Of a stretch of DNA of 64,000 nt, positions 1,636-48,825 are shown in pieces; position 1 is the first letter of the stretch, and the number at the start of each line of letters is the position of its first letter. The notes under the pieces are model-generated. The model did no database searches, was not told the DNA's origin, and saw nothing but the letters and a program-made list of their open reading frames with translations. The DNA comes from an uncultured Ignavibacteriales bacterium (lineage in GTDB: Bacteria; Zixibacteria; MSB-5A5; GN15; FEB-12), in the NCBI GenBank assembly GCA_964630485.1, contig CAZVUZ010000001.1:3472-67471 (forward strand), given 5' to 3'. A program made the position numbers and the translations under genes.

Positions 1636-3207
1636 ATGGCTGAGTTGACAAAGATAAAGAGAGCCCTCATTTCGGTTTCGGATAAATCCGGGATAGAGGA
1701 ACTTGCCCAGGCCCTTGACGGCATGGGCGTCCAGATAATCTCCACCGGGGGGACTCTGAAGAAACTCAAGGAGGCCGGCGTGCCGGCCATATCGGTATCG
1801 ACCTTCACGGGCGACCCGGAGATCCTTGACGGCCGGGTCAAGACCCTGCATCCGAAGATTTACGCCGGTTTGCTCTATCGGCGCGACAACCCGGATGACG
1901 TGGAATTGCTGAGCAAACTCGACTACCGGTCGCTCGACCTGGTCGTGGTCAACCTGTATCCCTTCCGCGAAACCGTCGCCCGTCCCGATGCGAGCGAGGC
2001 GGAGATTATCGAGAATATCGATATCGGGGGGCCGTCGATGATCCGGGCCTCGGCCAAGAACTACGCCAGCGTGACGGTGGTGGTCGATCCGTCCGATTAT
2101 GGCAGGCTCCTAGAGCAGTTGCAGGAACACGAAGGCGCCACCGATGCGGCCTTCAGAAAAGACTGCGCGCTCAAGGCTTTTTCGGCCACGGCGTCCTATG
2201 ACAGCGCTATCAGCACTTACTTCGCCGGTGGGGGGGATGACGAGGGCGGGACCTTCCCGGGCCGTTTGAACCTGGACTATTCCTTCAAATCGGAATTGCG
2301 ATACGGCGAAAACCCACATCAGCAGGCGGCGATTTACGGCCGCGACGAATACCCCGGGGCGAGCCTTCTCAGGGCCGAGATCCTGTCCGGAAAGGAACTT
2401 TCCTACAACAACTATGGTGACCTTGATGCCACCCTGGACATGCTCCTCGATTTCAAAGAACCCTTCGCCTGCGTTTTGAAACATGCCAATCCCTGCGGGG
2501 CGGCGGTGGGGAAGACCCTCGCTGAGGCCTACAAGCTTGCCTACGAGAGCGATCCCCTGTCGGCCTTCGGGTCGATTATCGGCTTGAACAAAGAGGTGGA
2601 TATGGAAACGGCCGAACTCCTGCATGAGACCCCGTTTGTCGAGTGCATGGTGGCGCCGTCATTCACCCCCGAGGCCTTCAAGCTCCTCAAGCGCAAGAAA
2701 GCCCGGCGTTTGCTGGCTTTACCGGGAATTCTCAAGGGTTTCCTGGCCAACGATGTCGTTTACCGCGCGATTCGCGGCGGCATGCTGATGCAGACCGCTG
2801 ACGATATCGAACTCGATCCGTCAACCTTGAAGGTTGTTACCAAACGTGAGCCGACCGAGGACGAACTGAAGTCCCTCCTGTTTGGCTGGAAGATCGTTAA
2901 ACACACGAAATCCAATGCCATCGTCCTGACCAAGGGCGGCGCCACGGTGGGGGTCGGCATGGGGCAGACCTCGCGGGTAGATTCCGGTTTCATGGCGGTC
3001 AAACGGGCCGGCGATCGCGCCAAAGGCGCGGTGATGGCCTCCGATGCCTTCTTCCCGATGCCCGACGGTGTCGAGGTGGCCACCGATGCCGGTGTGACGG
3101 CGATAATTCAGCCGGGTGGCTCCAAAGGTGATGAACAGGCGATTGAAGCCGCCGACAAAGCCGGCGCGGCCATGGTCTTTACGGGCGTCCGCCACTTCAA
3201 ACACTGA
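1636..3207 (+). CDS. purH: Bifunctional AICAR transformylase / IMP cyclohydrolase
   Basis: 523 aa. MGS-like N-domain (ALISVSDKSGI), NLYPF, GGPSMIRASAKN, and a GVRHFKH C-terminus characteristic of PurH. Confidence 0.95.
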   Translation: MAELTKIKRALISVSDKSGIEELAQALDGMGVQIISTGGTLKKLKEAGVPAISVSTFTGDPEILDGRVKTLHPKIYAGLLYRRDNPDDVELLSKLDYRSLDLVVVNLYPFRETVARPDASEAEIIENIDIGGPSMIRASAKNYASVTVVVDPSDYGRLLEQLQEHEGATDAAFRKDCALKAFSATASYDSAISTYFAGGGDDEGGTFPGRLNLDYSFKSELRYGENPHQQAAIYGRDEYPGASLLRAEILSGKELSYNNYGDLDATLDMLLDFKEPFACVLKHANPCGAAVGKTLAEAYKLAYESDPLSAFGSIIGLNKEVDMETAELLHETPFVECMVAPSFTPEAFKLLKRKKARRLLALPGILKGFLANDVVYRAIRGGMLMQTADDIELDPSTLKVVTKREPTEDELKSLLFGWKIVKHTKSNAIVLTKGGATVGVGMGQTSRVDSGFMAVKRAGDRAKGAVMASDAFFPMPDGVEVATDAGVTAIIQPGGSKGDEQAIEAADKAGAAMVFTGVRHFKH

Positions 3208-3229
3208 TATCGAATTTCATTTGTTCTGA

Positions 3230-3259
3230 CCGCCGGGTGTTATTCCCGGCGGTTTTTTT
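3230..3259 (+). terminator. Rho-independent terminator after purH
   Basis: Perfect 8-bp GC stem ccgccggg / cccggcgg with a 7-nt loop, followed by seven T. Confidence 0.7.
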
Positions 3260-3329
3260 GTGCTTACGGGAAGACTGATGTCGATCGATTTCAACTTGCC
3301 CCGGCGCAAGTTTCGACGTAAAGTCTTCC

Positions 3330-4004
3330 ATGACCAACGATCAACTCCTGAGGGCCTGCTATCTTTGCCGCCAACTTGATGACAAAGAAATGGCGTCCCT
3401 GGCGGCCATCGCTTCGTTTCGCAAAGCGCGCAAGGGCGAGGTAATGTTCATCGAGGGCGATACTGCGGTGGGGTTCTATGTCCTGCTCACGGGACGGGTG
3501 CGGATTTACAAGGCCTCCCCGGAAGGCAAGGAATACACCCTGCACCAGATCGCCCCCGGTCAGATGTTCGCCGAAGCGGCTATTTTCAGGGGGACGACCT
3601 ATCCCGCCAACGGCGCCGCCATGGCCGATTCGACGGTGGCCTTTTTCCCCAAGGACAGGTTCGTGGATTTGCTGGCCCGCTCCCCGCAAATGTCGCTGAA
3701 GATGATCGGGGCCCTGTCGGCATTTATCCGGGAGTTCAACGAGAAAGTCGAAGACCTTTCGCTCAAGGAGGTCCCGGCTCGCCTCGCCGCCTACTTGCTG
3801 AAACTCTCGCGAAAAAAAGGGCGCACTTTTCAACTCGACATAACCAAAACCGAGTTGGCTCATTCGCTCGGTACAATCAGCGCTACCCTTTCGCGTAACC
3901 TTAAGAAATTGAGTGACATCGGGGCCATAGAGGTCACCGGCAAGAATATTACCATCCTCGATGCCAAGCTTCTCGAATCCGTTCATGACGGCGAAAAAAT
4001 CTAA
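3330..4004 (+). CDS. Crp/Fnr family transcriptional regulator
   Basis: 224 aa. cNMP-binding-type beta-roll (GEVMFIEGDTAVGFYVLLTGRVRIYK) and a C-terminal HTH (TKTELAHSLGTISATLSRNLKKL). Confidence 0.85.
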   Translation: MTNDQLLRACYLCRQLDDKEMASLAAIASFRKARKGEVMFIEGDTAVGFYVLLTGRVRIYKASPEGKEYTLHQIAPGQMFAEAAIFRGTTYPANGAAMADSTVAFFPKDRFVDLLARSPQMSLKMIGALSAFIREFNEKVEDLSLKEVPARLAAYLLKLSRKKGRTFQLDITKTELAHSLGTISATLSRNLKKLSDIGAIEVTGKNITILDAKLLESVHDGEKI

Positions 4005-4010
4005 CTCCAT

Positions 4011-4024
4011 TTGACTTAAATCAA
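4011..4024. promoter_or_regulatory. FNR/CRP-family binding site candidate (TTGAC-N4-ATCAA)
   Basis: ttgacttaaatcaa matches 9 of 10 half-site positions of the FNR consensus TTGAT-N4-ATCAA. It lies between the regulator stop (4002-4004) and the ferredoxin gene. Confidence 0.5.
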
Positions 4025-4096
4025 AGCCTGATTGCGTCCAGTTTCCGATCTTGGGGACAGGCAATCAAGACGATGACCTCAAAAAAGGAATCACTC

Positions 4097-4846
4097 ATGG
4101 CGGTCAGGAAGATAATCAAGATAGATGAAGAAAAGTGCGACGGCTGCGGCCTGTGCGTTCCGTCCTGTGCCGAGGGCGCTATTCAGATAATCGACGGCAA
4201 GGCCCGCCTGGTGAGCGAAACCTATTGTGATGGCCTGGGGTCATGTCTTGGGGAGTGTCCCCAGGGTGCGATTAGCATGGAGGAGCGGGAAGCTCCGGAG
4301 TATGACGAGACGGCGGTCGAGAAACATCTGGCCGCGCCAAAAGCCGTGCCGATGCCGCTTCAATCGATCCCGGCCGCCTGTCCCGGTTCGGCCATGAAAC
4401 GCTTTAGCCCGCCCACCGGCCCGCCGCAACCGGGTGCGCCGGTGCCGGGACAGTCGCAACTGGGGCACTGGCCGGTACAGCTAATGCTGGTGCCGCCGTC
4501 GGCGCCGTTTCTCAAACAGGCCGATCTCCTGATCTGCGCCGACTGCGTTCCCTTTGCCGTCCACGACTTCCACAGCCGTTTCCTCAGCGGCAAAGCGGTG
4601 GTGGTCGGTTGTCCCAAGCTCGACAATCTCGAACACTACTTTGAAAAACTGAAGCAGATGTTTGGAGAGGCCGCCCCGAAGAGCCTTACCGTGCTGAAAA
4701 TGGAAGTACCCTGCTGTTCGGGTATCGCCCAGGCCGCGATTCAGGCCCGCAACGAAGTGATTCCCGGCACGCCGATCGAGGTTCATACCATAGGCGTCCG
4801 AGGTGAAATCGAAACCCGGAAAGTTCCGGCCGGCAATGCCGCCTGA
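4097..4846 (+). CDS. Ferredoxin-like 2x[4Fe-4S] protein with an extra Cys-rich C-terminal domain (FrdX-like)
   Basis: CDGCGLCVPSCAEGAI and CDGLGSCLGECPQGAI cluster motifs, then a C-terminal domain with CADCVPF, VGCPKLD and VPCCSG. ATG at 4097 has an AAGGA RBS; the alternative start is 4073. Confidence 0.75.
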   Translation: MAVRKIIKIDEEKCDGCGLCVPSCAEGAIQIIDGKARLVSETYCDGLGSCLGECPQGAISMEEREAPEYDETAVEKHLAAPKAVPMPLQSIPAACPGSAMKRFSPPTGPPQPGAPVPGQSQLGHWPVQLMLVPPSAPFLKQADLLICADCVPFAVHDFHSRFLSGKAVVVGCPKLDNLEHYFEKLKQMFGEAAPKSLTVLKMEVPCCSGIAQAAIQARNEVIPGTPIEVHTIGVRGEIETRKVPAGNAA

Positions 4847-4859
4847 GGAGCGATCCGCA

Positions 4860-6032
4860 ATGCGAGTTGCCGGCAAAGTGACGCAGGAATGTTCGAAAGT
4901 ACGTGAAAAAGGGGGCAATGCCCCTCTCCGGCGGGATACCTCGCGCCCGATTCAGCGTTATCGGCTGTCGATACAGATAGCCTTTGCGGCCCTGTGCCTG
5001 TGGATCGGGGTTGAGTTTTATCTGTTCGTGAAATATCTTGAGACAGCCGGTGTCGCGGGGGCCGCCTATCGTCCCCCGGGCGTGGAAGGGTTCCTTCCGA
5101 TCAGCTCGCTGATGAGCCTGTACTATTTCTTCCAGACGGGCATTGTCCATGCGGCACACCCGGCGGGCCTGTTTATCCTGCTGGCCATTTTGGTGGTCTC
5201 GTTCGTATTCGGGAAATCGTTTTGCTCCTGGCTTTGTCCGGTAGGGACGTTGTCGGAGTTTCTGGGTGATTTCGGACAGCGGCTCTTTGGCCGGCGACTG
5301 CGCCTGCCGCGGTTCCTTGACTATCCCTTGAGGAGTTTGAAATACTTGCTTCTCGCTTTCTTCGTTTACGCCATTTTCTTCGCCATGAGCAGCGCCGCCC
5401 TGGGGGCATTTCTCGACAGTTCCTACAATGTTGTGGCCGATGTGAAGATGTACTACTTTTTTGCCGACATCTCCCGTTTCGCGCTGGTAGTCGTCGGGGT
5501 GCTCTTCTTCCTCTCGATTGTCATCAGGAATTTCTGGTGCCGGTATTTGTGTCCCTATGGCGCCTTTCTGGGGGTGGTCTCGCTTTTGAGCCCGCTCAAG
5601 ATTAAACGCAATCCGCAATCCTGCATCGACTGTGGCAAATGCGCCCGCGCGTGCCCGTCACTTATCAAAGTAGATAAGGTCAATACGGTCCTCTCCGACG
5701 AATGCACGACCTGTATGAATTGTGTTGACGTGTGCCCGGTCAAGGAGACCCTCGACCTGGCGCCGGTCGGCGGGCGGAAGAGAATTCCGCGCAAAGTTGT
5801 TGCTATCGGAGTGGTGGTTCTGTTTGTTGCTGTTACAGGATTGGGAGTTGTGACCGGCAACTGGGCCAATGACATTTCCACCGACGAGTATTTGCACCAT
5901 CAGGAACGACTGCATCTTTACGGCCATCCCACCGGTACGCGGGAAATCGATGAATTGAACCGCGAAGTTCGTAAGGGGCGTTCCGAGGCGGGGCCGTCGG
6001 AGGCGTCGGAGGTAAGTCCGGATCAAAGATAG
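4860..6032 (+). CDS. NapH/MauN-type membrane polyferredoxin (putative quinol-interacting Fe-S protein)
   Basis: Multiple TM helices with CSWLCPVG and CRYLCPYG motifs, followed by CIDCGKCARACP and CTTCMNCVDVCP 4Fe-4S motifs. ATG at 4860 is preceded by a GAGGAG RBS; the ORF is open from 4803. Confidence 0.8.
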   Translation: MRVAGKVTQECSKVREKGGNAPLRRDTSRPIQRYRLSIQIAFAALCLWIGVEFYLFVKYLETAGVAGAAYRPPGVEGFLPISSLMSLYYFFQTGIVHAAHPAGLFILLAILVVSFVFGKSFCSWLCPVGTLSEFLGDFGQRLFGRRLRLPRFLDYPLRSLKYLLLAFFVYAIFFAMSSAALGAFLDSSYNVVADVKMYYFFADISRFALVVVGVLFFLSIVIRNFWCRYLCPYGAFLGVVSLLSPLKIKRNPQSCIDCGKCARACPSLIKVDKVNTVLSDECTTCMNCVDVCPVKETLDLAPVGGRKRIPRKVVAIGVVVLFVAVTGLGVVTGNWANDISTDEYLHHQERLHLYGHPTGTREIDELNREVRKGRSEAGPSEASEVSPDQR

Positions 6033-6100
6033 TTAAAGCCGCACTTAAATCGGAATTAAGCATCGCGCGGGAGAACCCGCCAAACGATAGGGCGAGGTAT

Positions 6101-7432
6101 ATGGGTTATCTTCTAAAACTTATGATCGTGATTTTGCTGGCATTGCCGCTGGCAACCGCCGGGGCCGCGGTCGATGACAATGTCTCAGGCAAGTGCATGA
6201 CCTGCCACAAAGAGAGGTCACCGGGACTTTACAAGCAATGGTTCAAATCCCAGCACGCCATCCACAAGGTGACATGCATCGGGTGCCACGGCGCCGAGCG
6301 CGGGGAGGCCGATGCTTTCCTGCACGAAGGGGCGTACATTGCCACGCTGGTAACACCGAAGGATTGCGGCCAATGCCATGCCCGCGAGGCCGAGCAGGTG
6401 GAGGCCTCCTATCATGCCCATGCCGGGGAGATCCTTGAATCGGCCGATGCTTACCTGGCCCATGTCGCCGGCGGCGAGCCGGTGGCCATCCTGGGTTGCG
6501 AGAGTTGCCACGGCGGCAAGGTGATTATCGATGAGTCCTCGCCCAACAAGCTCTCGCGGAAAAGCTGGCCCAACTCGGGCATCGGGCGGCTTAATCCCGA
6601 TGGGTCCAAAGGGTCCTGCAATGCCTGTCACACCCGCCATTCATTCTCGAAAGCCCAGGCGCGACAACCGGAGGCCTGCTCCAAGTGTCACCTTGGTCCG
6701 GACCACCCGCAAAAGGAAATCTACGAGGAGTCCAAGCACGGCAACGCCTATTACACTCATCTCAACGACATGAACATCGATTCCGACCGCTGGGTGGTGG
6801 GGGAGGATTATTTCGAGGCTCCCACCTGCGCCACCTGTCACATGTCGGCGACCCGGACTATGTCTGTCACTCACGATGTCGGCGATCGCATAAGCTGGAC
6901 GTTGCGTCCCAAGGTCTCCAAACACAAGGACAACTGGCAGGCCAAACGGGCCAATATGATGAACGTTTGCGCCGCCTGTCACAGTTCCACCTTCCCGGAG
7001 GGGCATTATTACCAGTTTGACGCCGTCGTCGAGCTCTATAATGAAAAATTTGCCAAACCTGCCGGCGAGATAATGAAAATCGTCACGGACAACAAGCTCC
7101 TGGAGAACCCGGCTTCGTTCAGTAACAAGATCGAATGGACCTACTGGGAGTTGTGGCATCACGAGGGCCGCCGTGTGAGGCATGGCGCCGCCATGATGGG
7201 CCCGGACTACACCTGGTGGCACGGCATGTATGAGGTCGCCCAGCACTTCTATTTCAAGTTGCTTCCCGAGGCCCGCGAGTTCAAGAACCCCGAACTCGAT
7301 GCCTACCTGGACAACCTGATCGAGAACGATCCCATGCATTCGTGGTTGCATACCGCCACGGCCGATCTCAAGAAGGGTATCCGCTCGGGCGAAATGAAGG
7401 AGATATACGAGAAGCTGTTCGAAAAGAAATAG
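6101..7432 (+). CDS. Secreted octahaem cytochrome c, hydroxylamine oxidoreductase (HAO) family-like
   Basis: Signal peptide (LLALPLATAGAA) and exactly eight CxxCH motifs: CMTCH, CIGCH, CGQCH, CESCH, CNACH, CSKCH, CATCH, CAACH. The helical C-terminal region WELWHHEGRRVRHGAAMMGPDYTWWHG recalls HAO-type proteins. Confidence 0.8.
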   Translation: MGYLLKLMIVILLALPLATAGAAVDDNVSGKCMTCHKERSPGLYKQWFKSQHAIHKVTCIGCHGAERGEADAFLHEGAYIATLVTPKDCGQCHAREAEQVEASYHAHAGEILESADAYLAHVAGGEPVAILGCESCHGGKVIIDESSPNKLSRKSWPNSGIGRLNPDGSKGSCNACHTRHSFSKAQARQPEACSKCHLGPDHPQKEIYEESKHGNAYYTHLNDMNIDSDRWVVGEDYFEAPTCATCHMSATRTMSVTHDVGDRISWTLRPKVSKHKDNWQAKRANMMNVCAACHSSTFPEGHYYQFDAVVELYNEKFAKPAGEIMKIVTDNKLLENPASFSNKIEWTYWELWHHEGRRVRHGAAMMGPDYTWWHGMYEVAQHFYFKLLPEAREFKNPELDAYLDNLIENDPMHSWLHTATADLKKGIRSGEMKEIYEKLFEKK

Positions 7433-7441
7433 GGGTGGATT

Positions 7442-8935
7442 TTGTTTGAGAAATATCTCAATTTCGTGCGCGGCGTCTCGGCGACCTGGTATGGCAAACT
7501 GGGTGTGATTCTCACAACCTCGTCTTTCGCGACGCTGGTCCTGCTGGAACTGGCCCGGTTGGCGGGTATAGTTACCAACACCTATGTCGGGCTGGTGACC
7601 TACCTGCTGTTTCCGACCCTGTTCGTAATCGGCCTGGTACTCATTCCACTGGGATGGTTTAAGCTCAAACGCCTTACCGGCAAATCGACCCGTGAGTTGC
7701 TCCTCGGCAGGTTCGAGGCCGCCGCAACGGGCGAGGGTTTCTTCGGCTCGCGGCTTTTTCGGACGATTGTCATCTTTTCGCTGATCAATATCATATTTCT
7801 GGGAGGGATAAGTTCCCAGATGCTGAGTTTCATGGATGAGCCGGTGTTTTGCGGAACAGCCTGCCACAGTGTGATGAATCCCGAGTGGACCACATATCAG
7901 GACTCGCCGCACGCCCGCGTGAGATGCGTCGACTGCCATGTCGGGGAGGGTGTCGATGCCCTGCTCGACTCCAAACTCAACGGAATCTGGCAAATGGTAT
8001 CGGTGACCTTCGATTTGCTCGAACGCCCGATTCCGACTCCCGTGCGTCAACTTCGGCCGGCCCGTGAGACCTGCGAGAATTGCCACTGGCCGGAGAAGTT
8101 TTATGGGAGCCGCCTTAAGACCATCGTGTCCTATCAGCCGGATTCGGCATCGACACCGCTGTTTACTACCCTGGCACTGAAAGTCGATGCCGGGAGAGGG
8201 GGCGAAAAGGCCGGTATACATTGGCACATCGGAGCGGAGACCGAAGTGCGCTATGTCTCGATCGACGACGAGCGCGAGCAGATTGTGTGGACCGAAGTCC
8301 GCCGCCCCGACGGCAGTTATCATCGGTATACCAATAAAGAGCTGGCCGAGGCCGGATACGGGGATGTCAAAGCGCGAGTAATGGACTGCGTCGACTGCCA
8401 CAACCGCGCCACCCATATTTACGAAGACGCCGACCGGGCACTCGATGAGCGGATTCGGCGTGGACTTCTTACGCGAACGCTTCCCTACCTGAAACGGGAG
8501 GCCCTCCACGCCATTTCTAATGATTACGGCGACTCGATGGCGGTGATGCAAGGCATTGAGAATCAACTGAACGGTTTCTATCGAAGCAATTATCCCGATC
8601 TGGCGCTGAGCAATATGGATGCCATCGATTCGGTGATAGCGGTGCTTCAGGGTGTTCATCTTAGAAATATCCATCCCGAAATGAACATAACCTGGGGCTC
8701 TTATCCGAGCCACATCGGGCACGTCGGAGACGGAGGCTGTTTCAGGTGCCATAATCCTGATCTGGTCGATGAGGAGGGGGGGGAAGTTGAATACGATTGC
8801 ACCCTCTGTCATTCGATTCTGGCCTATGATGAGGATGAACCGTTTGAATATGTGCTCCCGCTGGATACGGCCGATATTGAGGCGCCGGTGCACCGGTATC
8901 TCCGCCAGGAGTTTTTGCTGTCGTATCGCCACTGA
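7442..8935 (+). CDS. Membrane-anchored hexahaem cytochrome c with a NapC/NirT/NrfH-like N-terminal haem pair
   Basis: Three N-terminal hydrophobic helices, then six CxxCH motifs: CGTACH, CVDCH, CENCH, CVDCH, CFRCH, CTLCH. TTG start lies 10 nt after the stop of the octahaem gene, with AGGGGTGG upstream. Confidence 0.8.
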   Translation: MFEKYLNFVRGVSATWYGKLGVILTTSSFATLVLLELARLAGIVTNTYVGLVTYLLFPTLFVIGLVLIPLGWFKLKRLTGKSTRELLLGRFEAAATGEGFFGSRLFRTIVIFSLINIIFLGGISSQMLSFMDEPVFCGTACHSVMNPEWTTYQDSPHARVRCVDCHVGEGVDALLDSKLNGIWQMVSVTFDLLERPIPTPVRQLRPARETCENCHWPEKFYGSRLKTIVSYQPDSASTPLFTTLALKVDAGRGGEKAGIHWHIGAETEVRYVSIDDEREQIVWTEVRRPDGSYHRYTNKELAEAGYGDVKARVMDCVDCHNRATHIYEDADRALDERIRRGLLTRTLPYLKREALHAISNDYGDSMAVMQGIENQLNGFYRSNYPDLALSNMDAIDSVIAVLQGVHLRNIHPEMNITWGSYPSHIGHVGDGGCFRCHNPDLVDEEGGEVEYDCTLCHSILAYDEDEPFEYVLPLDTADIEAPVHRYLRQEFLLSYRH

Positions 8936-8964
8936 AGCCTTCGGCCCTGGCTGAGACGATTCCG

Positions 8965-9005
8965 GTGATGGTCGCCATCGGGAGTGGTGACCATCACTTT
9001 TTTTT
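8965..9005 (+). terminator. Rho-independent terminator after the cytochrome operon
   Basis: 9-bp stem gtgatggtc / gaccatcac followed by eight T. Confidence 0.7.
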
Positions 9006-41357: not shown

Positions 41358-42065
41358 ATGGCAAAGCAAGGTGTAGGCGAATCGATCTGGGACAATACCA
41401 AACAGGTGCTTCTGGCGATCGTGATGGCCATCGTAATCAAGACCTCCATCGTGGAGGCGTACAAGATTCCGTCACAGTCGATGGAGGACACGCTTTTGGT
41501 CGGAGATTTTCTTCTGGCCAACAAGTTTCTTTACGGCGCCCATTTGCCCCTGGTCGACTGGCGCCTGCCCGCCATTCGTCAGCCGGAGCCGGGTGATGTC
41601 GTGATTTTCATATTTCCCCGTGACGGCGTGACCAAGTATATCAAACGATGTGTCGCGGTCGGCGGCGATACCGTTGAAATCAAAGACAAGCAGCTGTTCG
41701 TCAACGGCAAGGAATTTACGAATCCCGAGGAGTCGAAATTCATCGAGCCGCGGGTGATTTCGCGAGGACAGGGGGGACGGGACAGCCGCGATAATTTCGG
41801 ACCCTATGTCGTTCCGAAAGACACTTACTTCATGATGGGCGACAATCGCGACAATTCTTATGACTCCCGATTCTGGGGACCTGTAAAGAAGGAGCTTGTC
41901 CTGGGTGAGGCGATGATGATACACTGGTCCTGGAATGACGATATACATCCGTCACCGGAGGTCAAGATAAGCGACCCCCTCTCAGTGCCGCGTCTGTTTA
42001 TTCACGGCGCCGTTCATTTCTTCGACAAGGTCCGCTGGGGCCGGATTTTCAATCTGATCTCCTGA
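41358..42065 (+). CDS. lepB: Signal peptidase I (copy 1)
   Basis: IPSQSMEDTL (catalytic Ser), YIKRCVAVGGD (catalytic Lys box) and GDNRDNSYDSRFWG. Confidence 0.9.
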   Translation: MAKQGVGESIWDNTKQVLLAIVMAIVIKTSIVEAYKIPSQSMEDTLLVGDFLLANKFLYGAHLPLVDWRLPAIRQPEPGDVVIFIFPRDGVTKYIKRCVAVGGDTVEIKDKQLFVNGKEFTNPEESKFIEPRVISRGQGGRDSRDNFGPYVVPKDTYFMMGDNRDNSYDSRFWGPVKKELVLGEAMMIHWSWNDDIHPSPEVKISDPLSVPRLFIHGAVHFFDKVRWGRIFNLIS

Positions 42066-42231
42066 AATACGCTGTGTTATTTGTTACGGGAGAGCAAGTT
42101 AACCGGCGCGCACACGACTTTCGCCGTCCTCTGTGATTGCTTGCCCGGGGACGGTATTTTTTGTATTAATCAGGCTATTCGCTGGCGGGTATAAGTAACG
42201 TTGACCGAATTTTATTGCGAAAGATGACCAG

Positions 42232-42984
42232 ATGCCGACCGAAGACAACAATACCGAATACAACACCTACGAACCCCCGCGCATAACTGTGACGGGAGGG
42301 GCCGGCGGCGCCGTGCGGACTCTCAAAGAGATCATTCTCTATGTGGCTCTTTTTATGGTGTTGAAGACCAGCGTGGTCAGCGCCTATAAAATCCCCTCGG
42401 CCTCAATGGAGGACACGCTGCTGGTCGGGGACTTCCTTCTGTGTAATCAGTTTCTCTACGGTGCGCGTTTGCCCCTGACAGATTGGCGCCTGCCGGCGAT
42501 AAGGGAGCCCCGGGCGGGCGATGTCGTCGTTTTCTATTTCCCTTCTGACGGTGTGACCCGCTATATCAAACGCTGTGTGGCGGTTGGCGGTGACACCGTG
42601 GAAGTTACCGGGAAAAAGCTATTTGTCAATGGTGTTGAGATTCCGGATCCGCCCGGCGGCAAGTATATAGATACTTCGAGCAACGGCCTGCAACGGATCC
42701 AGAGCCGTCGCGATAACTTCGGCCCCTACATCGTTCCGATGGACAGCTATTTCATGATGGGGGACAATCGGGACAATTCCTACGACTCCCGATTCTGGGG
42801 AACGGTGCCCGGCGACCTCGTGGTGGGCAAGGCCATAATGATACACTGGTCATGGAATGATGACGCCTCGCCGTCACCGGAAGTCACCTGGAAAGATCCC
42901 CTGTCCGTGCCGCGGCTGTTTGTCCATGAAACCATCCACTTCTTTGACAAGGTACGTTTTGGTCGAGTGTTCAATGCCCTGTAG
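42232..42984 (+). CDS. lepB: Signal peptidase I (copy 2, tandem paralogue)
   Basis: IPSASMEDTL, YIKRCVAVGGD and GDNRDNSYDSRFWG. Long stretches are identical to copy 1. Confidence 0.9.
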   Translation: MPTEDNNTEYNTYEPPRITVTGGAGGAVRTLKEIILYVALFMVLKTSVVSAYKIPSASMEDTLLVGDFLLCNQFLYGARLPLTDWRLPAIREPRAGDVVVFYFPSDGVTRYIKRCVAVGGDTVEVTGKKLFVNGVEIPDPPGGKYIDTSSNGLQRIQSRRDNFGPYIVPMDSYFMMGDNRDNSYDSRFWGTVPGDLVVGKAIMIHWSWNDDASPSPEVTWKDPLSVPRLFVHETIHFFDKVRFGRVFNAL

Positions 42985-43800: not shown

Positions 43801-43910
43801 GGAGCTTCTCCCAGCCCTGCAAAGACTGAAACCCCGTCGGGGGCTCGGCGGGATCAATCACCGCTCCTTTTTTGCTTGCCTTATGGCCGGTTGATTCCAC
43901 ATTGTCACTT

Positions 43911-44528
43911 ATGTACAATCTCGTCGCAACCAATCTGAGCAAACGCTTCGGCGCTCGCAAAGTGTTTTCGTCACTCGAGATAGCTTTGCAGACCGGTGAT
44001 TCCCTGGCCGTCGTCGGTCCCAATGGCTCCGGCAAATCGACCCTGATGACCGTTTTGCTGGGACTCCAGCGACCCACTCGCGGCGATATCGTGTACTCAT
44101 GCGACGGCAAGGCCCTGCCCGAGGAAGACATTCGCACCCGCGTCGGGTTCGTGTCGCCTTACCTGAATCTCTACGATCAATTGACGGCCGAGGAAAATAT
44201 CAAGTTCTTCGCCACCGTCTCCAACCTGTCCCTGACCGGCAAGGAAATCGACAGCCAGTTGGCCGAGCTTGGCCTTGAGGGGAGGGGGATGGACCCGGTG
44301 GGGGAATACTCGTCGGGGATGAAGCAGCGGCTGAAATACGCCGTGGCTTTTCTGGGTAAACCCGATTTTCTGTTTCTGGACGAACCTTCGGCCAATCTCG
44401 ATGATTCGGGCCGCCACGCGATTTTTGCCGCGATAGAGCGTTTCCGTGAAGACAGCATAATCGTCATCGCCACCAATGAAAAGGAGGAGTATTCCCTTGC
44501 GTCGAGGCAATGCCGGCTTGGTGGCTAA
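43911..44528 (+). CDS. ccmA: Haem exporter ATP-binding protein
   Basis: Walker A GPNGSGKST, signature YSSGMKQRL and Walker B LFLDEP. First gene of a ccm-type operon. Confidence 0.85.
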   Translation: MYNLVATNLSKRFGARKVFSSLEIALQTGDSLAVVGPNGSGKSTLMTVLLGLQRPTRGDIVYSCDGKALPEEDIRTRVGFVSPYLNLYDQLTAEENIKFFATVSNLSLTGKEIDSQLAELGLEGRGMDPVGEYSSGMKQRLKYAVAFLGKPDFLFLDEPSANLDDSGRHAIFAAIERFREDSIIVIATNEKEEYSLASRQCRLGG

Positions 44529-44532
44529 AACT

Positions 44533-45180
44533 ATGGCGGTTTTCGCCAAGGATCTGCGCCTGGAACTGCGCAGTCGCTATGCGCTCAATGCCATTCTCAT
44601 GTTCGGCATTACGTCGCTGGCGGTTATTTCCTTTTCGCTCGGGCAGGCGGGGCTTTCGCCGAAACTTCACGCCGCTCTCTTCTGGGTGGTAATGTTTTTT
44701 TCGGCCATGGCCGGTCTCGCCCAGGTCTTCGTGCGCGAGGAAGAGGCCGGGACCGCCCTGGCATTAAAGCTCAAGGCTGACCCCGACGCCCTCTATCTTG
44801 GGAAACTACTGTTTAATTTCACGCTGCTGACGGTAATGACGGTGATCATCACGCCGATCTTTTTCGTATTTACCGATGCCCCCGTAGACAATATCATGCT
44901 CTTTATTGCCTTTCTTATTCTCGGGGTAATCGGTCTGTGCGGCGCGACGACACTCGTGGCGGCTATTATCGCCAAGGCCTCGGTAAAAGGGCCTCTATTC
45001 GCCGTTTTGTCGTTCCCTGTCCTCATGCCGTTGCTCCTGGTCGTAGTCGGGGGATCGGAGAAGGCGCTGGGGGGAGCTTCAATCGGCGAGGTGTCCGCCG
45101 AGTTACAGTTCATGCTGGCCTATGCGGTGGTGATGTTAACCGGATCAATCCTCCTTTTTCGCTTCGTCTGGAAGGAATGA
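44533..45180 (+). CDS. ccmB: Haem exporter permease CcmB
   Basis: Six-helix membrane protein directly after ccmA with FAKDLRLELRSRYAL, a CcmB-like N-terminus. Alternative GTG start at 44521. Confidence 0.8.
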   Translation: MAVFAKDLRLELRSRYALNAILMFGITSLAVISFSLGQAGLSPKLHAALFWVVMFFSAMAGLAQVFVREEEAGTALALKLKADPDALYLGKLLFNFTLLTVMTVIITPIFFVFTDAPVDNIMLFIAFLILGVIGLCGATTLVAAIIAKASVKGPLFAVLSFPVLMPLLLVVVGGSEKALGGASIGEVSAELQFMLAYAVVMLTGSILLFRFVWKE

Positions 45181-45269
45181 CCGGCGCGGCGGTGATAGAG
45201 TGAACTCTGTTGCTTTTAGCCTGTTATAGAACTTAATTTGTGAAAATGGGAAATTGCGAGTAGAATAAT

Positions 45270-45926
45270 ATGTGGTGGAAAATAGTATTGTTCCTGGGGA
45301 TGACGGCCGTAATCGTCTTCAGCTTCATCACGCCGGCCCCGCAGGCGGTGATTGGTGAATCGAGCCGTATTTTCTATTTTCACATACCCCAGGCCTGGAT
45401 TGCCGTCCTGGCCTTTGCCATGTCGATGATATACTCGATACGATTTCTCAAAACGCGGCGCACGGAGTTTGACGACCGGGCCCTCGAGGCCGCCCGGCTG
45501 GGCTTGCTGTTCAGTATTCTGGCGACCATCACCGGTTCTATTTTTGCCCGTGTGACCTGGGGATCGTTCTGGAACTGGGACCCGCGCGAGACGTCGATCT
45601 TCATCCTGTTGCTGATATACGGGGCGTATTTCGCATTGCGGACGGCGGTGGAAGAGCCGCAACGGCGGGCCACGCTTTCGGCGGTATACTCGATTTTCGC
45701 GTTTTTGACCGTTCCGTTTCTGGTTTTCGTAATACCTCGCGTGGTGCCCTCGTTACACCCTGCGGATTCGGTCGTTGATCAGGATATGAAATTTACCATG
45801 GGCCCGACTGTGAGGGCGATTTTCTTCTCGTCTCTGGCCCTGTTTACCGTATTGTATTTGTGGTTATTCAGCCTGGCTGAGCGGGTCAATGCCGTGCGTC
45901 GGGCGCGCCTGGAAGCGGAGGACTAA
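45270..45926 (+). CDS. ccmC: Haem exporter / haem-handling protein CcmC
   Basis: WWD-type motif WGSFWNWDPRETS and FYFHIPQAW. Confidence 0.9.
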   Translation: MWWKIVLFLGMTAVIVFSFITPAPQAVIGESSRIFYFHIPQAWIAVLAFAMSMIYSIRFLKTRRTEFDDRALEAARLGLLFSILATITGSIFARVTWGSFWNWDPRETSIFILLLIYGAYFALRTAVEEPQRRATLSAVYSIFAFLTVPFLVFVIPRVVPSLHPADSVVDQDMKFTMGPTVRAIFFSSLALFTVLYLWLFSLAERVNAVRRARLEAED

Positions 45927-46040
45927 ATGGATGGAAACTACGTGGCCCTGGCGGTCACCCTGGCCATATGGATAGGTGTTTTTGTATACCTGATGCGATT
46001 GGATAAGAGAGTCAAAAAGATCGAGAGGCAATCCCGCTGA
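45927..46040 (+). CDS. ccmD: CcmD-like small membrane protein (37 aa, absent from the ORF track)
   Basis: My translation is MDGNYVALAVTLAIWIGVFVYLMRLDKRVKKIERQSR: one TM helix followed by a basic tail. The ATG abuts the ccmC stop, and its TGA overlaps the ccmE ATG (TGATG). Confidence 0.55.
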   Translation: MDGNYVALAVTLAIWIGVFVYLMRLDKRVKKIERQSR

Positions 46041-46474
46041 TGGCCCGATACATAATCGGCGGCATTATAATAGCCGTCTTTCTCGTCTGGGGTGGCTATG
46101 CTTTCCTGAGTACCACTATCCAGTATGTGCCCATCGATCAGGCGCGCGACTCCGGGCGCACGGTGCAGGTGCTGGGCAAGATTGATTTCGCCCGGGTGCA
46201 ATACAGCGCCGAGCAATCGCGTCTTGAATTTGCCATCTACGATGCCGAGGCTGTGGATACCCTCAATGCCGAACGCCTTCCCGTCGTCTACCACGGCATC
46301 GTGCCGGGCAATTTCGACCAGGCAACTTCGGTGGTGCTGAAAGGGCGCGGCGATGGCGAGGTGTTCGAGGCCGATCAGATCCTGGTCAAATGTCCGTCCA
46401 AGTACCAGGGCGAGGGAGACGAGTTTCAGGATATGAAGAAGCATCAAGAGGGCGTTGGCCAGGCGGGGATATAG
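46040..46474 (+). CDS. ccmE: Haem chaperone CcmE, CxxxY variant
   Basis: N-terminal TM anchor and OB-fold-length domain. It has VKCPSKYQ (C118..Y122) where canonical CcmE has K-H-xxx-Y. Confidence 0.88.
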   Translation: MARYIIGGIIIAVFLVWGGYAFLSTTIQYVPIDQARDSGRTVQVLGKIDFARVQYSAEQSRLEFAIYDAEAVDTLNAERLPVVYHGIVPGNFDQATSVVLKGRGDGEVFEADQILVKCPSKYQGEGDEFQDMKKHQEGVGQAGI

Positions 46475-46479
46475 CGGGG

Positions 46480-48825
46480 ATGAGTCTCAATACTTTCGGT
46501 GAATTACTGATACGGCTGGCGTTTGCCCTGAACCTTCTGGCCGGTTTTAGCTTCCTGCGTCTGGCCGGCGGGCACCTCTCTTACGAGAGTCTCGCGCGCC
46601 GCAGTTACAACGTTTTCGTGGCGGTAGTGACCGTGGCGGTGGCCTTGCTCTATTTTCTCTTCTTCAACCACGAATTTGTTTTCAAGTATGTCTTCGAATA
46701 TTCCGACAGCTCGCTGCCGTTTTTCTATCTCCTGTCGAGTTTCTGGGGCGGCCAGGAAGGCACCTATTTGCTCTGGCTGTTCTTCAGTGCTTTGCTGGGA
46801 TATGTCATCATCTACCGGGGAGGGATTTACCGCAACTGGGCGATGGTGATCTACACCTGCGTGAACGCTTTCTTCTTGTTCATAATGACGGAGCTGTCAC
46901 CGTTCGCGGTGCTCGATTTCTGGCCGCCCGAGGGCGCCGGACTGAATCCGCTTTTGCAGGATCCGTGGATGGTAATACATCCGCCGGTCATTTTCTGGGG
47001 CTATGCTCTGGCGGCGGTTCCTTTCTCGATTGCGCTGGCGGCGCTTATCCTCAACGATTACTCCGAATGGGTCCGGAGAGCCTTTCCCTGGGTGGGAATG
47101 ACCGCGTTCCTTCTGGGAGCCGGTAACGTCATGGGCGGCTACTGGGCCTACAAGACGCTCGGTTGGGGCGGTTACTGGGCCTGGGATCCAGTCGAGAATT
47201 CGTCCTTTGTGCCCTGGTTCGCCGCGCTGGCTCTTTTGCACGGGCTTATTGTCGAGAAACGCTCCGGGGCGCTCCGGCGCTCCAATATACTCCTGTCGGC
47301 GATAGTGTTCGTTCTGGTAGTTTACGGTACTTTTCTGACTCGAAGCGGGGTCCTGGCGGACTTTTCGGTACACAGTTTCGTCGATCTGGGCACTACGGTC
47401 TATCTGGTGGGCTTTCTCATACTTTTCCTGATCGTAACCCTGGTTCTCTTTGCCTGGCGCTTCCGGACTTCCGGAGGCAAGCCGATTGAATACAACCTGT
47501 TCAGCCGTTTTTTCTCACTCGTGGCGGCGGAGGCAATGCTTTTCGTCTTCGCCATGATCGTCCTCTTCTGGAGTTCCCTGCCGGTTATTACGACCTACCT
47601 CACGAATGAGCCGCGCGCGGCTGATATCCCCACTTACAACAGCTTTGCTATGCCGTTCGCGGTCGTTTATGCGTTGCTGCTGGCGGTGTCGCCGCTGATC
47701 GGTTACGGTTCCCGCTCGATGACGAACTGGCCCCGGAAACTGATTATAACGCTGGTTGTTGTTGCCGCCCTTGGGGGTGGTCTGTTCTATGTTGTTCTCG
47801 GCGCCGGTTTTGTCTTCGCCGTGGTGTTTACGCTGGTGCTTACCGGTCTGGTGATGTACTTCCTGAACGAGGAGTTCCGCTCGAAGGCTTATCCGGCCCT
47901 GGGCGGATTCTTGGGGACGGCGGTGCTGGCGATGTTGCTGGGTGTTCGGGAATATATGTATATCCTGCTCTTCGCGACGGCAGCCATGGCGATTGTTACC
48001 AATGTTTCTTTTGTTATTAAGGGTTTCCCCCGAGGGTGGAAATATGCCGGGGGACAGGTAGCCCATTTCGGGTTTGGCCTGATGATTATCGGTATCGTCG
48101 CCTCGTCGGCTTTCAGCACCAGCGAACAACTGATCTTACCTCTCGGCAAGAGCGATTCGGCTTATAATCTGTCGGTAACGTACCGCGGCATGGCCAATCA
48201 GATAATGCATCCCAACAACGAGTTAATATTGGATCTCAACGACGGTTCCGGCGCCGAAGAGATACGGCCACAACTGTATTATTCCGAGCGTCTCAACGGC
48301 ATAATGCGCAAGCCGTATATCCACCGTTCTTTCCTCGACGATCTCTACTTCGCCCCCCAGGAAGTCCGCGAGGGCGAGGCCGGGGCCGGGTTGGTGCTGG
48401 TTAAGGGGGAAATGAAGAGAGTCGGCGAATACGAAATTACCTTCGATGATTTCGTCATGGATCAGCACAGCGACGGCGGCGGTCACATGAGTGTCGGCGC
48501 CCGGCTGGAGGTTGTGAATGGCTCCGCGGTTGATACCGTAATGCCGGTTCTGAGTATGGGGTCGGCGGGCACTTCGCTGCAGGCGGACAAAGTCGTGTAT
48601 CTTGATACTGCCGGTCAATACCCGGTCAATATCACCGGCATTCAGGCTGATCGCGGAGCGGTTGTGCTGGATATTCCCGGTCTCACGTCCGACGCCCGGG
48701 GCGAGCAACTGGCCCTGGAAATATCACGCAAACCGTTGATTACGCTGGTCTGGGTGGGGACGACATTTATCCTCATCGGTGGCTTGATAGCCTATTTTAG
48801 GCGTCGTTCGGAGCTGGAAGCCTAA
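46480..48825 (+). CDS. ccmF: Cytochrome c haem lyase subunit CcmF
   Basis: Polytopic protein with the WWD motif WGGYWAWDPVENSSFVPW and a C-terminal periplasmic domain plus final TM. ATG at 46480 lies after the ccmE stop; the ORF is open from 46390. Confidence 0.9.
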   Translation: MSLNTFGELLIRLAFALNLLAGFSFLRLAGGHLSYESLARRSYNVFVAVVTVAVALLYFLFFNHEFVFKYVFEYSDSSLPFFYLLSSFWGGQEGTYLLWLFFSALLGYVIIYRGGIYRNWAMVIYTCVNAFFLFIMTELSPFAVLDFWPPEGAGLNPLLQDPWMVIHPPVIFWGYALAAVPFSIALAALILNDYSEWVRRAFPWVGMTAFLLGAGNVMGGYWAYKTLGWGGYWAWDPVENSSFVPWFAALALLHGLIVEKRSGALRRSNILLSAIVFVLVVYGTFLTRSGVLADFSVHSFVDLGTTVYLVGFLILFLIVTLVLFAWRFRTSGGKPIEYNLFSRFFSLVAAEAMLFVFAMIVLFWSSLPVITTYLTNEPRAADIPTYNSFAMPFAVVYALLLAVSPLIGYGSRSMTNWPRKLIITLVVVAALGGGLFYVVLGAGFVFAVVFTLVLTGLVMYFLNEEFRSKAYPALGGFLGTAVLAMLLGVREYMYILLFATAAMAIVTNVSFVIKGFPRGWKYAGGQVAHFGFGLMIIGIVASSAFSTSEQLILPLGKSDSAYNLSVTYRGMANQIMHPNNELILDLNDGSGAEEIRPQLYYSERLNGIMRKPYIHRSFLDDLYFAPQEVREGEAGAGLVLVKGEMKRVGEYEITFDDFVMDQHSDGGGHMSVGARLEVVNGSAVDTVMPVLSMGSAGTSLQADKVVYLDTAGQYPVNITGIQADRGAVVLDIPGLTSDARGEQLALEISRKPLITLVWVGTTFILIGGLIAYFRRRSELEA

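Follow-up and report, generated by a model that had tools for sequence, protein, structure and literature searches.

A predicted HcpR-type nitrogen-oxide operon in Zixibacteria combining an octahaem cytochrome and its NrfH-like partner with a regulator-FrdX-polyferredoxin front end

A 64,000-nt stretch of DNA from an uncultured Ignavibacteriales bacterium, placed in the Zixibacteria by the GTDB lineage (contig CAZVUZ010000001.1, positions 3,472 to 67,471; hereafter the window), contains a cluster of five genes on the forward strand. They encode a Crp/Fnr regulator (crp, 3330-4004, 224 residues), a FrdX-like protein (frdX, 4073-4846, 257 residues), a NapH-like membrane polyferredoxin (napH, 4860-6032), an octahaem cytochrome (OCC; occ, 6101-7432, 443 residues) and a membrane cytochrome with six haem sites (HEX; hexa, 7442-8935, 497 residues). 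A preliminary description of the sequence saw in these proteins an electron-transfer arrangement that it did not recognise, with a NapH-like and a NapC-like quinone-interacting component side by side. The question is whether the cluster is a single new machine or a combination of known parts. The comparison described here favours the second answer. The locus is probably, although by no means certainly, an HcpR-type-regulated nitrogen-oxide operon in which an OCC-HEX unit is fused with a portable regulator-FrdX-polyferredoxin front end.

The cluster appears to consist of two modules, the front end and an OCC-HEX back end, each of which is found independently elsewhere. The neighbourhood of OCC was surveyed in 80 species-representative genome loci (L001-L080), 69 of them with enough downstream DNA, and that of the NapH-like protein in 80 metagenome loci whose orthologues are 57-68% identical to it. 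Both sets are the 80 best matches of their scan, that is, the most similar ones and not an unbiased census; genes were called in them with a simple longest-open-reading-frame heuristic that produced some antisense artefacts. In 58 of the 69 loci, which come from more than 15 phyla, the gene immediately after OCC is that of HEX. Represented in the survey are Zixibacteria, Calditrichota, Ignavibacteria (with a metagenome-assembled genome (MAG) attributed to Melioribacter roseus among them), Acidobacteriota, Marinimicrobia, Krumholzibacteria, Fibrobacterota, Myxococcota, Gemmatimonadota, KSB1 and Desulfobulbales. The loci without HEX downstream of OCC come mostly from Desulfobulbales and Desulfuromonadales.

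Within the OCC survey, crp-frdX-napH is linked to OCC solely in Zixibacteria-type loci. The gene order of the window is found in L007 and L008 and is rearranged in L019; L005 has hcp between napH and occ, and L079 reads crp-frdX-hcp-occ. A napH-like gene without frdX, followed by OCC and HEX, occurs in four loci of Ignavibacteria and Bacteroidota (L014, L035, L048 and L080). In the metagenome survey neither HEX nor a close OCC stands beside the NapH-like gene in any of the 80 loci. The two quinone-linked components would face opposite sides of the membrane, because the iron-sulfur centres of the NapH-like protein and FrdX are predicted to be cytoplasmic and the haems of OCC and HEX periplasmic. 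Topology and neighbourhoods together point to joined modules, not to one chain with two redundant quinol dehydrogenases. The initial view of the five proteins as one unrecognised machine is thus not upheld, OCC-HEX being found mostly alone.

The front end contains an FNR/HcpR1-type palindromic box, TTGACTTAAATCAA (4011-4024, forward strand), situated in the crp-frdX spacer 62 nt before the ATG at 4073. It is the sole TTGAYN4RTCAA match in the 64 kb, against 0.21 expected. All sister loci and 10 additional metagenome loci have this box in the same spacer, at a distance of 51-82 nt upstream of frdX, and its conserved form in the front end is TTGAC-N4-GTCAA. The site consensus for HcpR was taken from PMC1274295 and PMC545781, and the box of the window fits the published HcpR1 form wyTTGACnnnnGTCAArw (PMC1274295). 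It is proposed as the activator site of a frdX-napH-occ-hexa transcript. Eleven loci from other phyla, with no crp, frdX or napH nearby, have a box 73-198 nt upstream of OCC; these 11 boxes fall within 19.25 kb, in which 0.28-0.48 are expected (P 1e-14 to 5e-12). In 4 more loci the box precedes the first gene of an OCC-HEX operon led by a porin, cupin or Rrf2 gene. Since the boxes upstream of OCC occur in loci free of the front end, OCC-HEX would be part of an FNR-family regulon in many lineages.

The regulator itself has both domains expected of a Crp/Fnr protein (Pfam cNMP_binding, 79 bits; HTH_Crp_2, 59 bits), as first described, and reaches no NCBIfam equivalog. It has no FNR-type cysteine cluster, its sole cysteines being C10 and C13. 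Orthologues with 57-65% identity adjoin frdX in L005, L007, L008, L019 and L079, and further orthologues do so in 7 metagenome loci. The protein thus has Crp/Fnr architecture without the FNR cysteines, its gene stands beside frdX and/or hcp, and these are preceded by a conserved site of the TTGACnnnnGTCAA type. By this context the regulator appears to be of the HcpR type, and nitric oxide (NO) would be its signal.

The regulator gene has a promoter-like element of its own (3296-3324, forward strand; -35 TTGCCC, 17 nt, -10 TAAAGT). With about 6 nt between the end of its -10 hexamer and the ATG, the mRNA would have no leader or almost none. A CTTGCC ... TACTAT arrangement is found directly before the crp ATG in the sister loci L005, L007, L008 and L079. 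A perfect inverted repeat, AACTTGC-N6-GCAAGTT (3293-3312), overlaps the putative -35; it is not kept in the sister loci and may be either a chance occurrence or a strain-specific operator.

Published HcpR regulons, which were defined around hcp and frdX (PMC545781, PMC1274295), contain most of the parts seen here. In Desulfuromonas, frdX, the polyferredoxin gene yccM and a cytochrome c gene carry HcpR sites (PMC545781), and the regulons of Geobacter and Desulfuromonas include the respiratory genes nrfHA and nar (PMC1274295). In Desulfovibrio gigas, hcp, frdx, nrfA, a membrane-bound polyferredoxin gene and a cupin gene are HcpR1-dependent and induced by S-nitrosoglutathione, while a porin is an in-silico candidate outside these five validated targets (PMC4534486). 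The genome paper of M. roseus describes a protein with five transmembrane (TM) helices, assigned to electron transfer, in the nrfHA operon (PMC3534657). The HcpR regulons of Desulfovibrionales, Desulfuromonas and clostridia and the cluster in the window are alike in the class of regulator, in the TTGACnnnnGTCAA form of the box, and in their members, namely FrdX, a polyferredoxin of the membrane and a multihaem nitrite reductase that has a partner of NrfH type; the cupin and porin members are matched in related OCC-HEX loci (PMC545781, PMC1274295, PMC4534486). However, the published members are scattered over several operons and the reductase is NrfA, whereas the window has a single operon with OCC-HEX. 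The core gene hcp is absent from the window, and the likeness of the FrdX and NapH-like proteins is one of family and context.

Measured against this parts list, the combination that had gone unrecognised therefore consists of known regulon members with OCC-HEX in the slot of the nitrite reductase, and the arrangement is a lineage-specific fusion of such parts in Zixibacteria. A reductive HAO-like enzyme with an NrfH-type partner in an HcpR-type nitrogen-oxide regulon is a kind of system already known, and not a new kind of respiration; the fusion into a single operon appears to be specific to Zixibacteria. The role in nitrite, hydroxylamine or NO metabolism that had been suggested for the cluster gains support from the regulator, the box and the insertion of hcp in sister genomes.

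OCC belongs to the HAO family, as had been assumed. It matches PF13447 with 92.4 bits (cut-off 21.9), and direct counting found exactly eight CxxCH motifs and an N-terminal signal-type helix, in agreement with its description as a secreted cytochrome. A profile built from 25 diverse homologues retrieved IhOCC (4qo5) at 2e-86, followed by the HAO of Nitrosomonas europaea (1.5e-49), Kustc0458 (6e-46), HOX (2e-35) and HDH (1.5e-32). A single-sequence search of the PDB with phmmer gave 3e-45 for IhOCC and 1e-13 to 1e-20 for HAO, HOX, Kustc0458 and HDH. A better fit to the octahaem tetrathionate reductase OTR or to another non-HAO family, which the preliminary description had allowed for, was not found: OTR (1sp3) gave no match to the profile at E <= 1, and the matches to NrfA (3e-8), ONR (1e-6) and MccA (7e-3) were short, partial and marginal. 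OCC thus has eight CxxCH motifs in the order of the HAO family and significant similarity to its solved members.

The profile alignment reaches the C-terminus of HAO, where NPGGWTY467TEGW of 4fas_A lies opposite GPDYTW372W373HGMY of the window. The cross-linking Tyr467 faces Trp373, or Trp372 by an alternative gap placement, and hence a Trp in both cases. The same column holds Phe in IhOCC and Trp in Kustc0458, both of which are non-cross-linked, and Trp in 18 of the 25 family members. The distal Asp267-His268 pair of N. europaea HAO corresponds to D201-H202 (CATCHSGVDH aligned with CSKCHLGPDH), and this pair is present in 16-17 of the 25 relatives. The NCBIfam HDH model scores 69.8 bits, compared with a cut-off of 900. 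The inspection of the cross-linking Tyr that had been recommended at the outset thus gives the reductive answer: because Trp replaces this residue and the distal Asp-His pair is kept, OCC is predicted to be a reductive enzyme of the IhOCC/epsilon-Hao-like type within the HAO family.

Relatives of OCC with 60-81% identity number more than 8000, and 1708 clusters (50% identity) are found at E <= 1e-3. Across the more than 15 phyla of the genome survey OCC is 63-76% identical and HEX, far less conserved, 45-64%. The conservation of OCC points to strong constraint, frequent horizontal transfer, or both. The best solved relative, IhOCC of Ignicoccus hospitalis (PDB 4QO5), aligns over nearly the full length with the same eight-haem order and is likewise without the cross-link Tyr, with Phe in that column where OCC has Trp. 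It is archaeal, and its 521 residues include a large insert that the 443-residue OCC does not have (gap at query position ~290/291). IhOCC is not known to have a HEX-type partner. The epsilon-Hao proteins of the Campylobacterota, a name also given to Cabys_2556 of Caldithrix abyssi, are periplasmic octahaem members of the family without the Tyr ligand, like OCC. In Campylobacterota their genes have as partner the tetrahaem NapC/NrfH-type HaoC, whereas HEX has 3 TM helices, six haem sites and 497 residues. Calditrichota homologues are 69-75% identical to the OCC of the window.

For these relatives a reductive function has been reported or proposed. The description of IhOCC is that of a nitrite reductase (PMC9250108). 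Epsilon-Hao turns nitrite into ammonium in vitro, according to Haase 2017 as cited in PMC9213671 and PMC8940962, and in C. abyssi, whose genome has no nrfA, the homologue is presumed to act as the ammonifying nitrite reductase (PMC5317091); the latter paper leaves a HEX-type partner unmentioned. A second, shorter HAO-family multihaem gene (411-422 residues) is found divergent from napH-occ-hexa in L014 (5495-6730, minus strand) and L080 (4415-5683, minus strand). Its companions are a frdX-like gene in L014 and genes for DUF438-hemerythrin-PAS and DUF1858 proteins in L080.

Within the NrfH/NapC family, HEX is a variant with a new architecture. It scores above the gathering cut-off of PF03264 (NapC/NirT; 31.8 bits against 24.1) and has a Met ligand after the first haem site, but with 55.6 bits it stays below the cut-off of the NrfH equivalog TIGR03153 (134.2). 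Three hydrophobic helices are present, as first described, while the six CxxCH motifs then ascribed to it are, by direct count, five CxxCH and one CxxxCH (C137-GTA-C141-H142). The CxxxCH motif is invariant in 30 homologues, in which C137, C141, H142, M145, P147, E148 and W149 do not vary and N146 nearly never does. It forms the first haem site, CxxxCH-SVMNPEW, with a spacing of CxxxCH-xx-M in place of the CxxCH-x-M of NrfH. Six haem sites are plausible because this motif is invariant and is followed by an NrfH-like Met-Asn-Pro. Residues 114-176, including CH-x-MNP, align to NrfH of Desulfovibrio vulgaris (2j7a_C, E 3e-5). The loop between TM2 and TM3 is positively charged, and the haem domain is therefore placed in the periplasm. 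Additional haem sites are borne by an insert of ~100 residues, which is rich in beta-strands in a low-confidence model, and by a helical region. A fold classification of the extra ~200 residues was abandoned, as the AlphaFold2 model from a 30-sequence alignment has a mean pLDDT of 58.8 and values below 50 in the haem regions. Relatives of HEX number at least 5877 and are annotated merely as 'NapC/NirT family cytochrome c'.

By analogy with NrfHA, HEX would act as a quinol dehydrogenase and as the electron donor of OCC. In the menaquinol:nitrite oxidoreductase NrfH-NrfA of D. vulgaris (PDB 2J7A) the gene of a membrane quinol dehydrogenase likewise lies beside that of a periplasmic multihaem nitrite reductase, and in 13-16 metagenome loci nrfHA stands after the NapH-like gene, where the window has OCC-HEX. 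The two systems differ in the catalytic subunit, a pentahaem protein with a CxxCK haem in NrfA and an HAO-type octahaem protein in OCC, and in the gene order, the catalytic subunit coming first and the membrane subunit second in OCC-HEX. HEX also has 3 TM helices where NrfH has 1, six haem sites where NrfH has 4, the CxxxCH first site and the ~200-residue insert. The HAO-c554-cM552 hydroxylamine:ubiquinone redox module (HURM) of ammonia oxidisers is alike in pairing an HAO-family octahaem protein with a quinone-linked membrane cytochrome of the NapC/NrfH family, and OCC-HEX resembles this module in reverse (the 'reverse HURM' idea, PMC3701875). OCC-HEX, however, is without the cross-link Tyr and a c554 gene, is predicted to be reductive, and has a membrane partner of other architecture.

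Two further genes recur around OCC-HEX. An outer-membrane beta-barrel gene of the Alginate_exp type lies upstream of OCC in L003, L012, L019, L024, L027 and L042 and downstream of HEX in L020, L022, L030, L033, L050 and L064; a divergent member (26-31% identity) follows nrfHA in L089, L092, L101, L124, L141 and L155. The barrel may be an outer-membrane channel for nitrite or other anions. Extracellular electron transfer through a porin-cytochrome conduit was considered, as the barrel adjoins 9-14 OCC loci, and was set aside as the primary reading since the same porin family follows bona fide nrfHA. An anion channel is the simpler reading because the porin follows nrfHA and is also an HcpR1 candidate in D. 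gigas (PMC4534486). A small cupin gene recurs in OCC-HEX operons (L012, 266-661; L025, L028, L029 and L042), in parallel with the HcpR1-dependent cupin DGI_2602 of D. gigas (PMC4534486).

The NapH-like gene was listed with a GTG start at 4803. Its homologues align only from residue ~28-45 of that frame, so that the ATG at 4860, 13 nt past the frdX stop, is the likelier start. Pfam finds a 2x[4Fe-4S] domain and two copies of Fer4_5 (75.9 bits). Among named families NapH/MauN fits best, below threshold (TIGR02163, 96.7 bits where 213 are required; NapH equivalog, 93.2 where 234 are required). Direct counting confirmed the two Cx3CP motifs (CSWLCP and CRYLCP) and the two ferredoxin motifs (CIDCGKCARACP and CTTCMNCVDVCP) on which its description as a membrane iron-sulfur protein of NapH/MauN type had been based. 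Five TM helices are predicted, and the 2x[4Fe-4S] domain would lie on the cytoplasmic side, as would the two Cx3CP motifs. An acidic, His-rich tail of ~58 residues (window 5850-6032, ...DEYLHHQERLHLYGHP...) follows the fifth helix and is predicted to be periplasmic. Against the PDB the protein gave generic ferredoxin-domain matches only.

NapH of NapGH has the same membrane core, with its pair of Cx3CP motifs and a 2x[4Fe-4S] domain facing the cytoplasm, and so do NosH, MauN, YccM, CcoG and the C-terminal part of NosR. Canonical NapH has four TM helices, to which the protein of the window adds a fifth and the periplasmic tail. The nitrate-reductase context of NapH is also missing: the cluster has no napG, napA or other nap gene, and nap genes are absent from the recurrent neighbours of the 80 orthologous loci. 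Instead, the NapH-like genes occur with a regulator and with stress or nitrite-reductase genes. An Rrf2-family regulator gene lies directly upstream in 44 of the 80 loci, and frdX adjoins in 17, of which 7 have a crp gene. Downstream are genes for RIC/YtfE (19 loci), NrfH and NrfA (16 and 13), hemerythrins (14), a NirK-like copper protein accompanied by NirV-like and SCO1 genes (11, 8 and 7), a porin (8), distant HAO-family cytochromes (7), DUF438-hemerythrin-PAS and DUF1858-DUF2249 proteins (6-7) and Hcp (2). The Rrf2 regulators beside napH-like or OCC genes have a C-x6-C-x5-C motif of the iron-sulfur type. Their naming as NsrR was not adopted, as they match NCBIfam at superfamily level only, with IscR and SUF-regulator scores above that of NsrR and all of them below threshold.

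FrdX, predicted to be cytoplasmic, begins with a dicluster-ferredoxin fold, to which the Fer4 match of Pfam is limited (N-terminal third) and whose second motif is C-x5-C-x3-CP. A disordered linker leads to a C-terminal alpha/beta domain with six conserved cysteines, one at the linker, a CxxC, a single C and a CC(G), the last spaced as C-x33-CC(G). The protein is therefore as first portrayed, a 2x[4Fe-4S] protein with an extra Cys-rich domain. Gene callers elsewhere place its start at 4097, 8 codons later than 4073. Homologues number more than 8000, and a precomputed match to PF27217, a recent Pfam entry, is the sole cover of the C-terminal part (window 4500-4846). The AlphaFold2 model has a pLDDT of 77, rising to 86-96 in the C-terminal domain (residues ~135-245). 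With Foldseek the model matched PDB entries in the N-terminal ferredoxin part only; the Cys-rich domain had no credible solved relative by fold, and a sequence search of the PDB was likewise empty. This domain may be an unusual iron-sulfur or thiol redox site. An HdrB-type CCG domain, an idea raised by the C-x33-CCG spacing, was dropped, Pfam CCG giving no match. As expected of FrdX, a ferredoxin-like protein encoded beside hcp under an HcpR site, the gene adjoins hcp in L079, L086 and L130, is one gene away from it in L005 and lies near it in L034. In Clostridioides difficile NO raises the expression of frdX, a gene of as yet unassigned function, ~200-fold, and cells in which it is knocked down are sensitive to NO (PMC12915319).

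The boundaries of the cluster are well defined. The five co-directional, tightly spaced genes and the two terminators noted at the outset were all recovered. On the left the terminator of a purH-like gene (open reading frame 1636-3207) occupies 3228-3264 on the forward strand, with a hairpin proper at 3228-3254 (10-bp stem with 8 G-C pairs, 7-nt loop) and a T-run after it. On the right an intrinsic terminator (8964-9005, forward strand; hairpin proper 8964-8998, 15-pair stem, 5-nt loop) ends in a T7 run. The spacers crp/frdX, frdX/napH, napH/OCC and OCC/HEX measure 68, 13, 68 and 9 nt, and a terminator scan found no forward-strand terminator of any strength within the cluster. The four structural genes are probably co-transcribed. 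Since OCC-HEX has no box of its own in the window, transcription of frdX-napH-occ-hexa probably starts at the box-dependent promoter in front of frdX. The napH-occ spacer has a small G+C-rich hairpin without a T-run (6067-6080, GCGGG-AGAA-CCCGC), which the scan did not score as a terminator and which could be an element for processing or stability. An antisense reading frame of 763 residues (6641-8932, minus strand) was rejected as a gene, because it overlaps the strongly conserved occ and hexa and similar frames recur in related loci; most likely it arises as a side effect of codon usage.

Outside the operon, ~35 kb away, the ccm genes cited in the preliminary description were confirmed as ccmA, ccmB, ccmC and ccmF of System I cytochrome c maturation (43872-48825, forward strand; ABC_tran, CcmB, Cytochrom_C_asm and CcmF_C). 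The region directly upstream of ccmA (41358-42984) contains a tandem pair of signal peptidase I genes and, after it, a gene for a DUF1573 protein. An Rfam scan of the whole window gave no match. No homologues of hcp, nrfA, nrfH, nirK, RIC, porin, cupin or Rrf2 genes were found in the 64 kb.

The mechanism proposed for the operon, at the same degree of confidence as the reading given at the start, is as follows. NO or nitrite would activate the HcpR-type regulator, which would bind the box and turn on frdX-napH-occ-hexa. HEX would oxidise menaquinol at its Met-ligated first haem and pass the electrons through six haems to periplasmic OCC. OCC, presumably with a non-cross-linked, non-P460 haem, would reduce nitrite, NO and/or hydroxylamine, most likely to ammonium, in a logic that parallels NrfH-NrfA and the epsilon-Hao system. 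The regulator, the TTGAC-N4-GTCAA box, FrdX and the NapH/YccM-like protein would form a generic part of nitrogen-oxide clusters controlled by HcpR or Rrf2. FrdX and the polyferredoxin probably link the quinone pool to cytoplasmic detoxification and repair proteins that depend on iron-sulfur centres or ferredoxin, for example Hcp. The latter is a recurrent partner of the front end in sister genomes and would here be encoded elsewhere in the genome or be absent. The substrate of OCC and the way in which electrons run through FrdX and the NapH-like protein are deductions within this scheme.

Several points weigh against this reading. The sequence of a box cannot separate HcpR from Dnr, NnrR or FNR-type regulators, and the 11 loci from other phyla that carry it have no assigned cognate regulator. 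Tyr334 of the distal pocket of HAO aligns to Arg, and the active site of OCC therefore differs from those of the enzymes studied. The substrate is deduced from relatives and genomic context, and a literature search found no experimental study of the five proteins or close homologues. Even in model organisms FrdX and the NapH-like protein have no assigned role. The 64-kb window contains no hcp, nrfA, nirK or RIC gene, and sulfur-compound reduction has been proposed for related HAO proteins outside clade III (Speth et al., PMC9213671).

The last proposal, extended to OCC as a reductase of sulfite, tetrathionate or polysulfide, is very improbable here. It concerned HAO-family proteins that Desulfobacterota of nitrate-poor sediments carry (PMC9213671), and the wider fold family offers precedents of sulfur chemistry in MccA and OTR. 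Yet MccA matches the OCC profile at only 7e-3 and OTR not at all, sulfur-metabolism genes are never recurrent beside OCC-HEX, and the recurrent neighbours and regulators (Hcp, the HcpR-type box, Rrf2, and a cupin and porin shared with nrfHA clusters) are all of nitrogen-oxide type. An oxidative OCC, a hydroxylamine or hydrazine dehydrogenase as many databases label it, can be given hardly any credence. Homologues are annotated 'hydroxylamine dehydrogenase' or 'hydroxylamine oxidoreductase', and OCC itself matches PF13447 and, weakly, NCBIfam HDH. But the Tyr that creates the P460 haem is replaced by Trp, the HDH score falls far below its cut-off, the hosts are anaerobic, amo or hzs context is absent from the loci, and the NrfH-type quinol dehydrogenase partner is that of reductive systems.

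It is unlikely, though less remote, that the five proteins form a continuous chain, a sharpened form of the initial view, in which electrons of a low-potential cytoplasmic donor would pass to FrdX, the NapH-like protein, then menaquinone or HEX directly, and through HEX and OCC to the nitrogen oxide, with the front end as a dedicated electron input for periplasmic nitrite reductases. The tight linkage and shared predicted promoter in the window, L007 and L008, a linkage that outlasts the rearrangement in L019, would fit such a chain, as would the napH-like, OCC, HEX order without FrdX in four loci, the five-TM protein of the M. roseus nrfHA operon (PMC3534657) and the position of NapH-like genes before three unrelated periplasmic reductases (NrfHA, NirK-like and HAO-like). 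The same genes, however, precede cytoplasmic proteins (RIC, hemerythrins, Hcp) equally and are not beside HEX in the metagenome set; ~50 of the 58 OCC-HEX loci have no NapH-like or FrdX gene nearby. HEX, as NrfH, is already a full path from quinol to enzyme, and a NapG-like periplasmic adaptor is absent. [quoted passage not shown] The half-sites TTGAY/RTCAA are of FNR type, the C. abyssi homologue was proposed as a respiratory nitrite reductase (PMC5317091), and respiratory nrfHA and nar occur in HcpR regulons (PMC1274295). The adjacent regulator, on the other hand, has no cysteines for the [4Fe-4S] cluster of FNR, and most boxes have the published HcpR1 form TTGAC...GTCAA, not TTGAT...ATCAA. 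Insertion of hcp in sister genomes and the classic NO-stress companions of the front end (RIC/YtfE, hemerythrins, Hcp) also speak against it. The respiratory reading overlaps with that of an HcpR-type operon, as detoxification and respiration can coexist.

Dozens of phyla have HAO-family proteins outside the nitrifier and anammox clade. In anoxic metagenomes these proteins rank with the most abundant 'nitrogen-cycle' matches (PMC8940962), and their function has been described as unknown or even sulfur-related (PMC9213671). The present comparison ties a large conserved OCC subgroup (more than 8000 sequences, 60-81% identity) to nitrogen-oxide metabolism, through the HcpR-type box before OCC in several phyla, the hcpR-frdX-(hcp) fusion in Zixibacteria and the shared porin family, with the cupin as a further tie (PMC4534486). 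It also defines the constant partner of OCC, a six-haem-site NrfH-type protein so far annotated only generically, and brings out that clusters for nitrite reductases and nitrosative stress repeatedly contain an unexplained regulator-linked polyferredoxin. The function can be tested in cultured carriers, namely C. abyssi and, if the isolate has the OCC-HEX of its MAG, M. roseus. Caution is also advised in counting OCC-type genes as nitrification markers.

A bolder and quite tentative suggestion is that the regulator-(FrdX)-NapH/YccM-like unit is an undescribed NO- or nitrite-inducible membrane redox module that serves three unrelated types of periplasmic nitrite reductase (NrfA, NirK-like and OCC) as well as proteins of cytoplasmic repair and detoxification. 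If this is true, the polyferredoxin unit might be a point of electron entry to or exit from the quinone pool, or a maintenance factor of reductases like NosR or CcoG. OCC-HEX would then be the main non-NrfA ammonifying nitrite or NO reductase in more than 15 mostly uncultured phyla, at present miscounted in metagenome surveys as the nitrification marker 'hao'.

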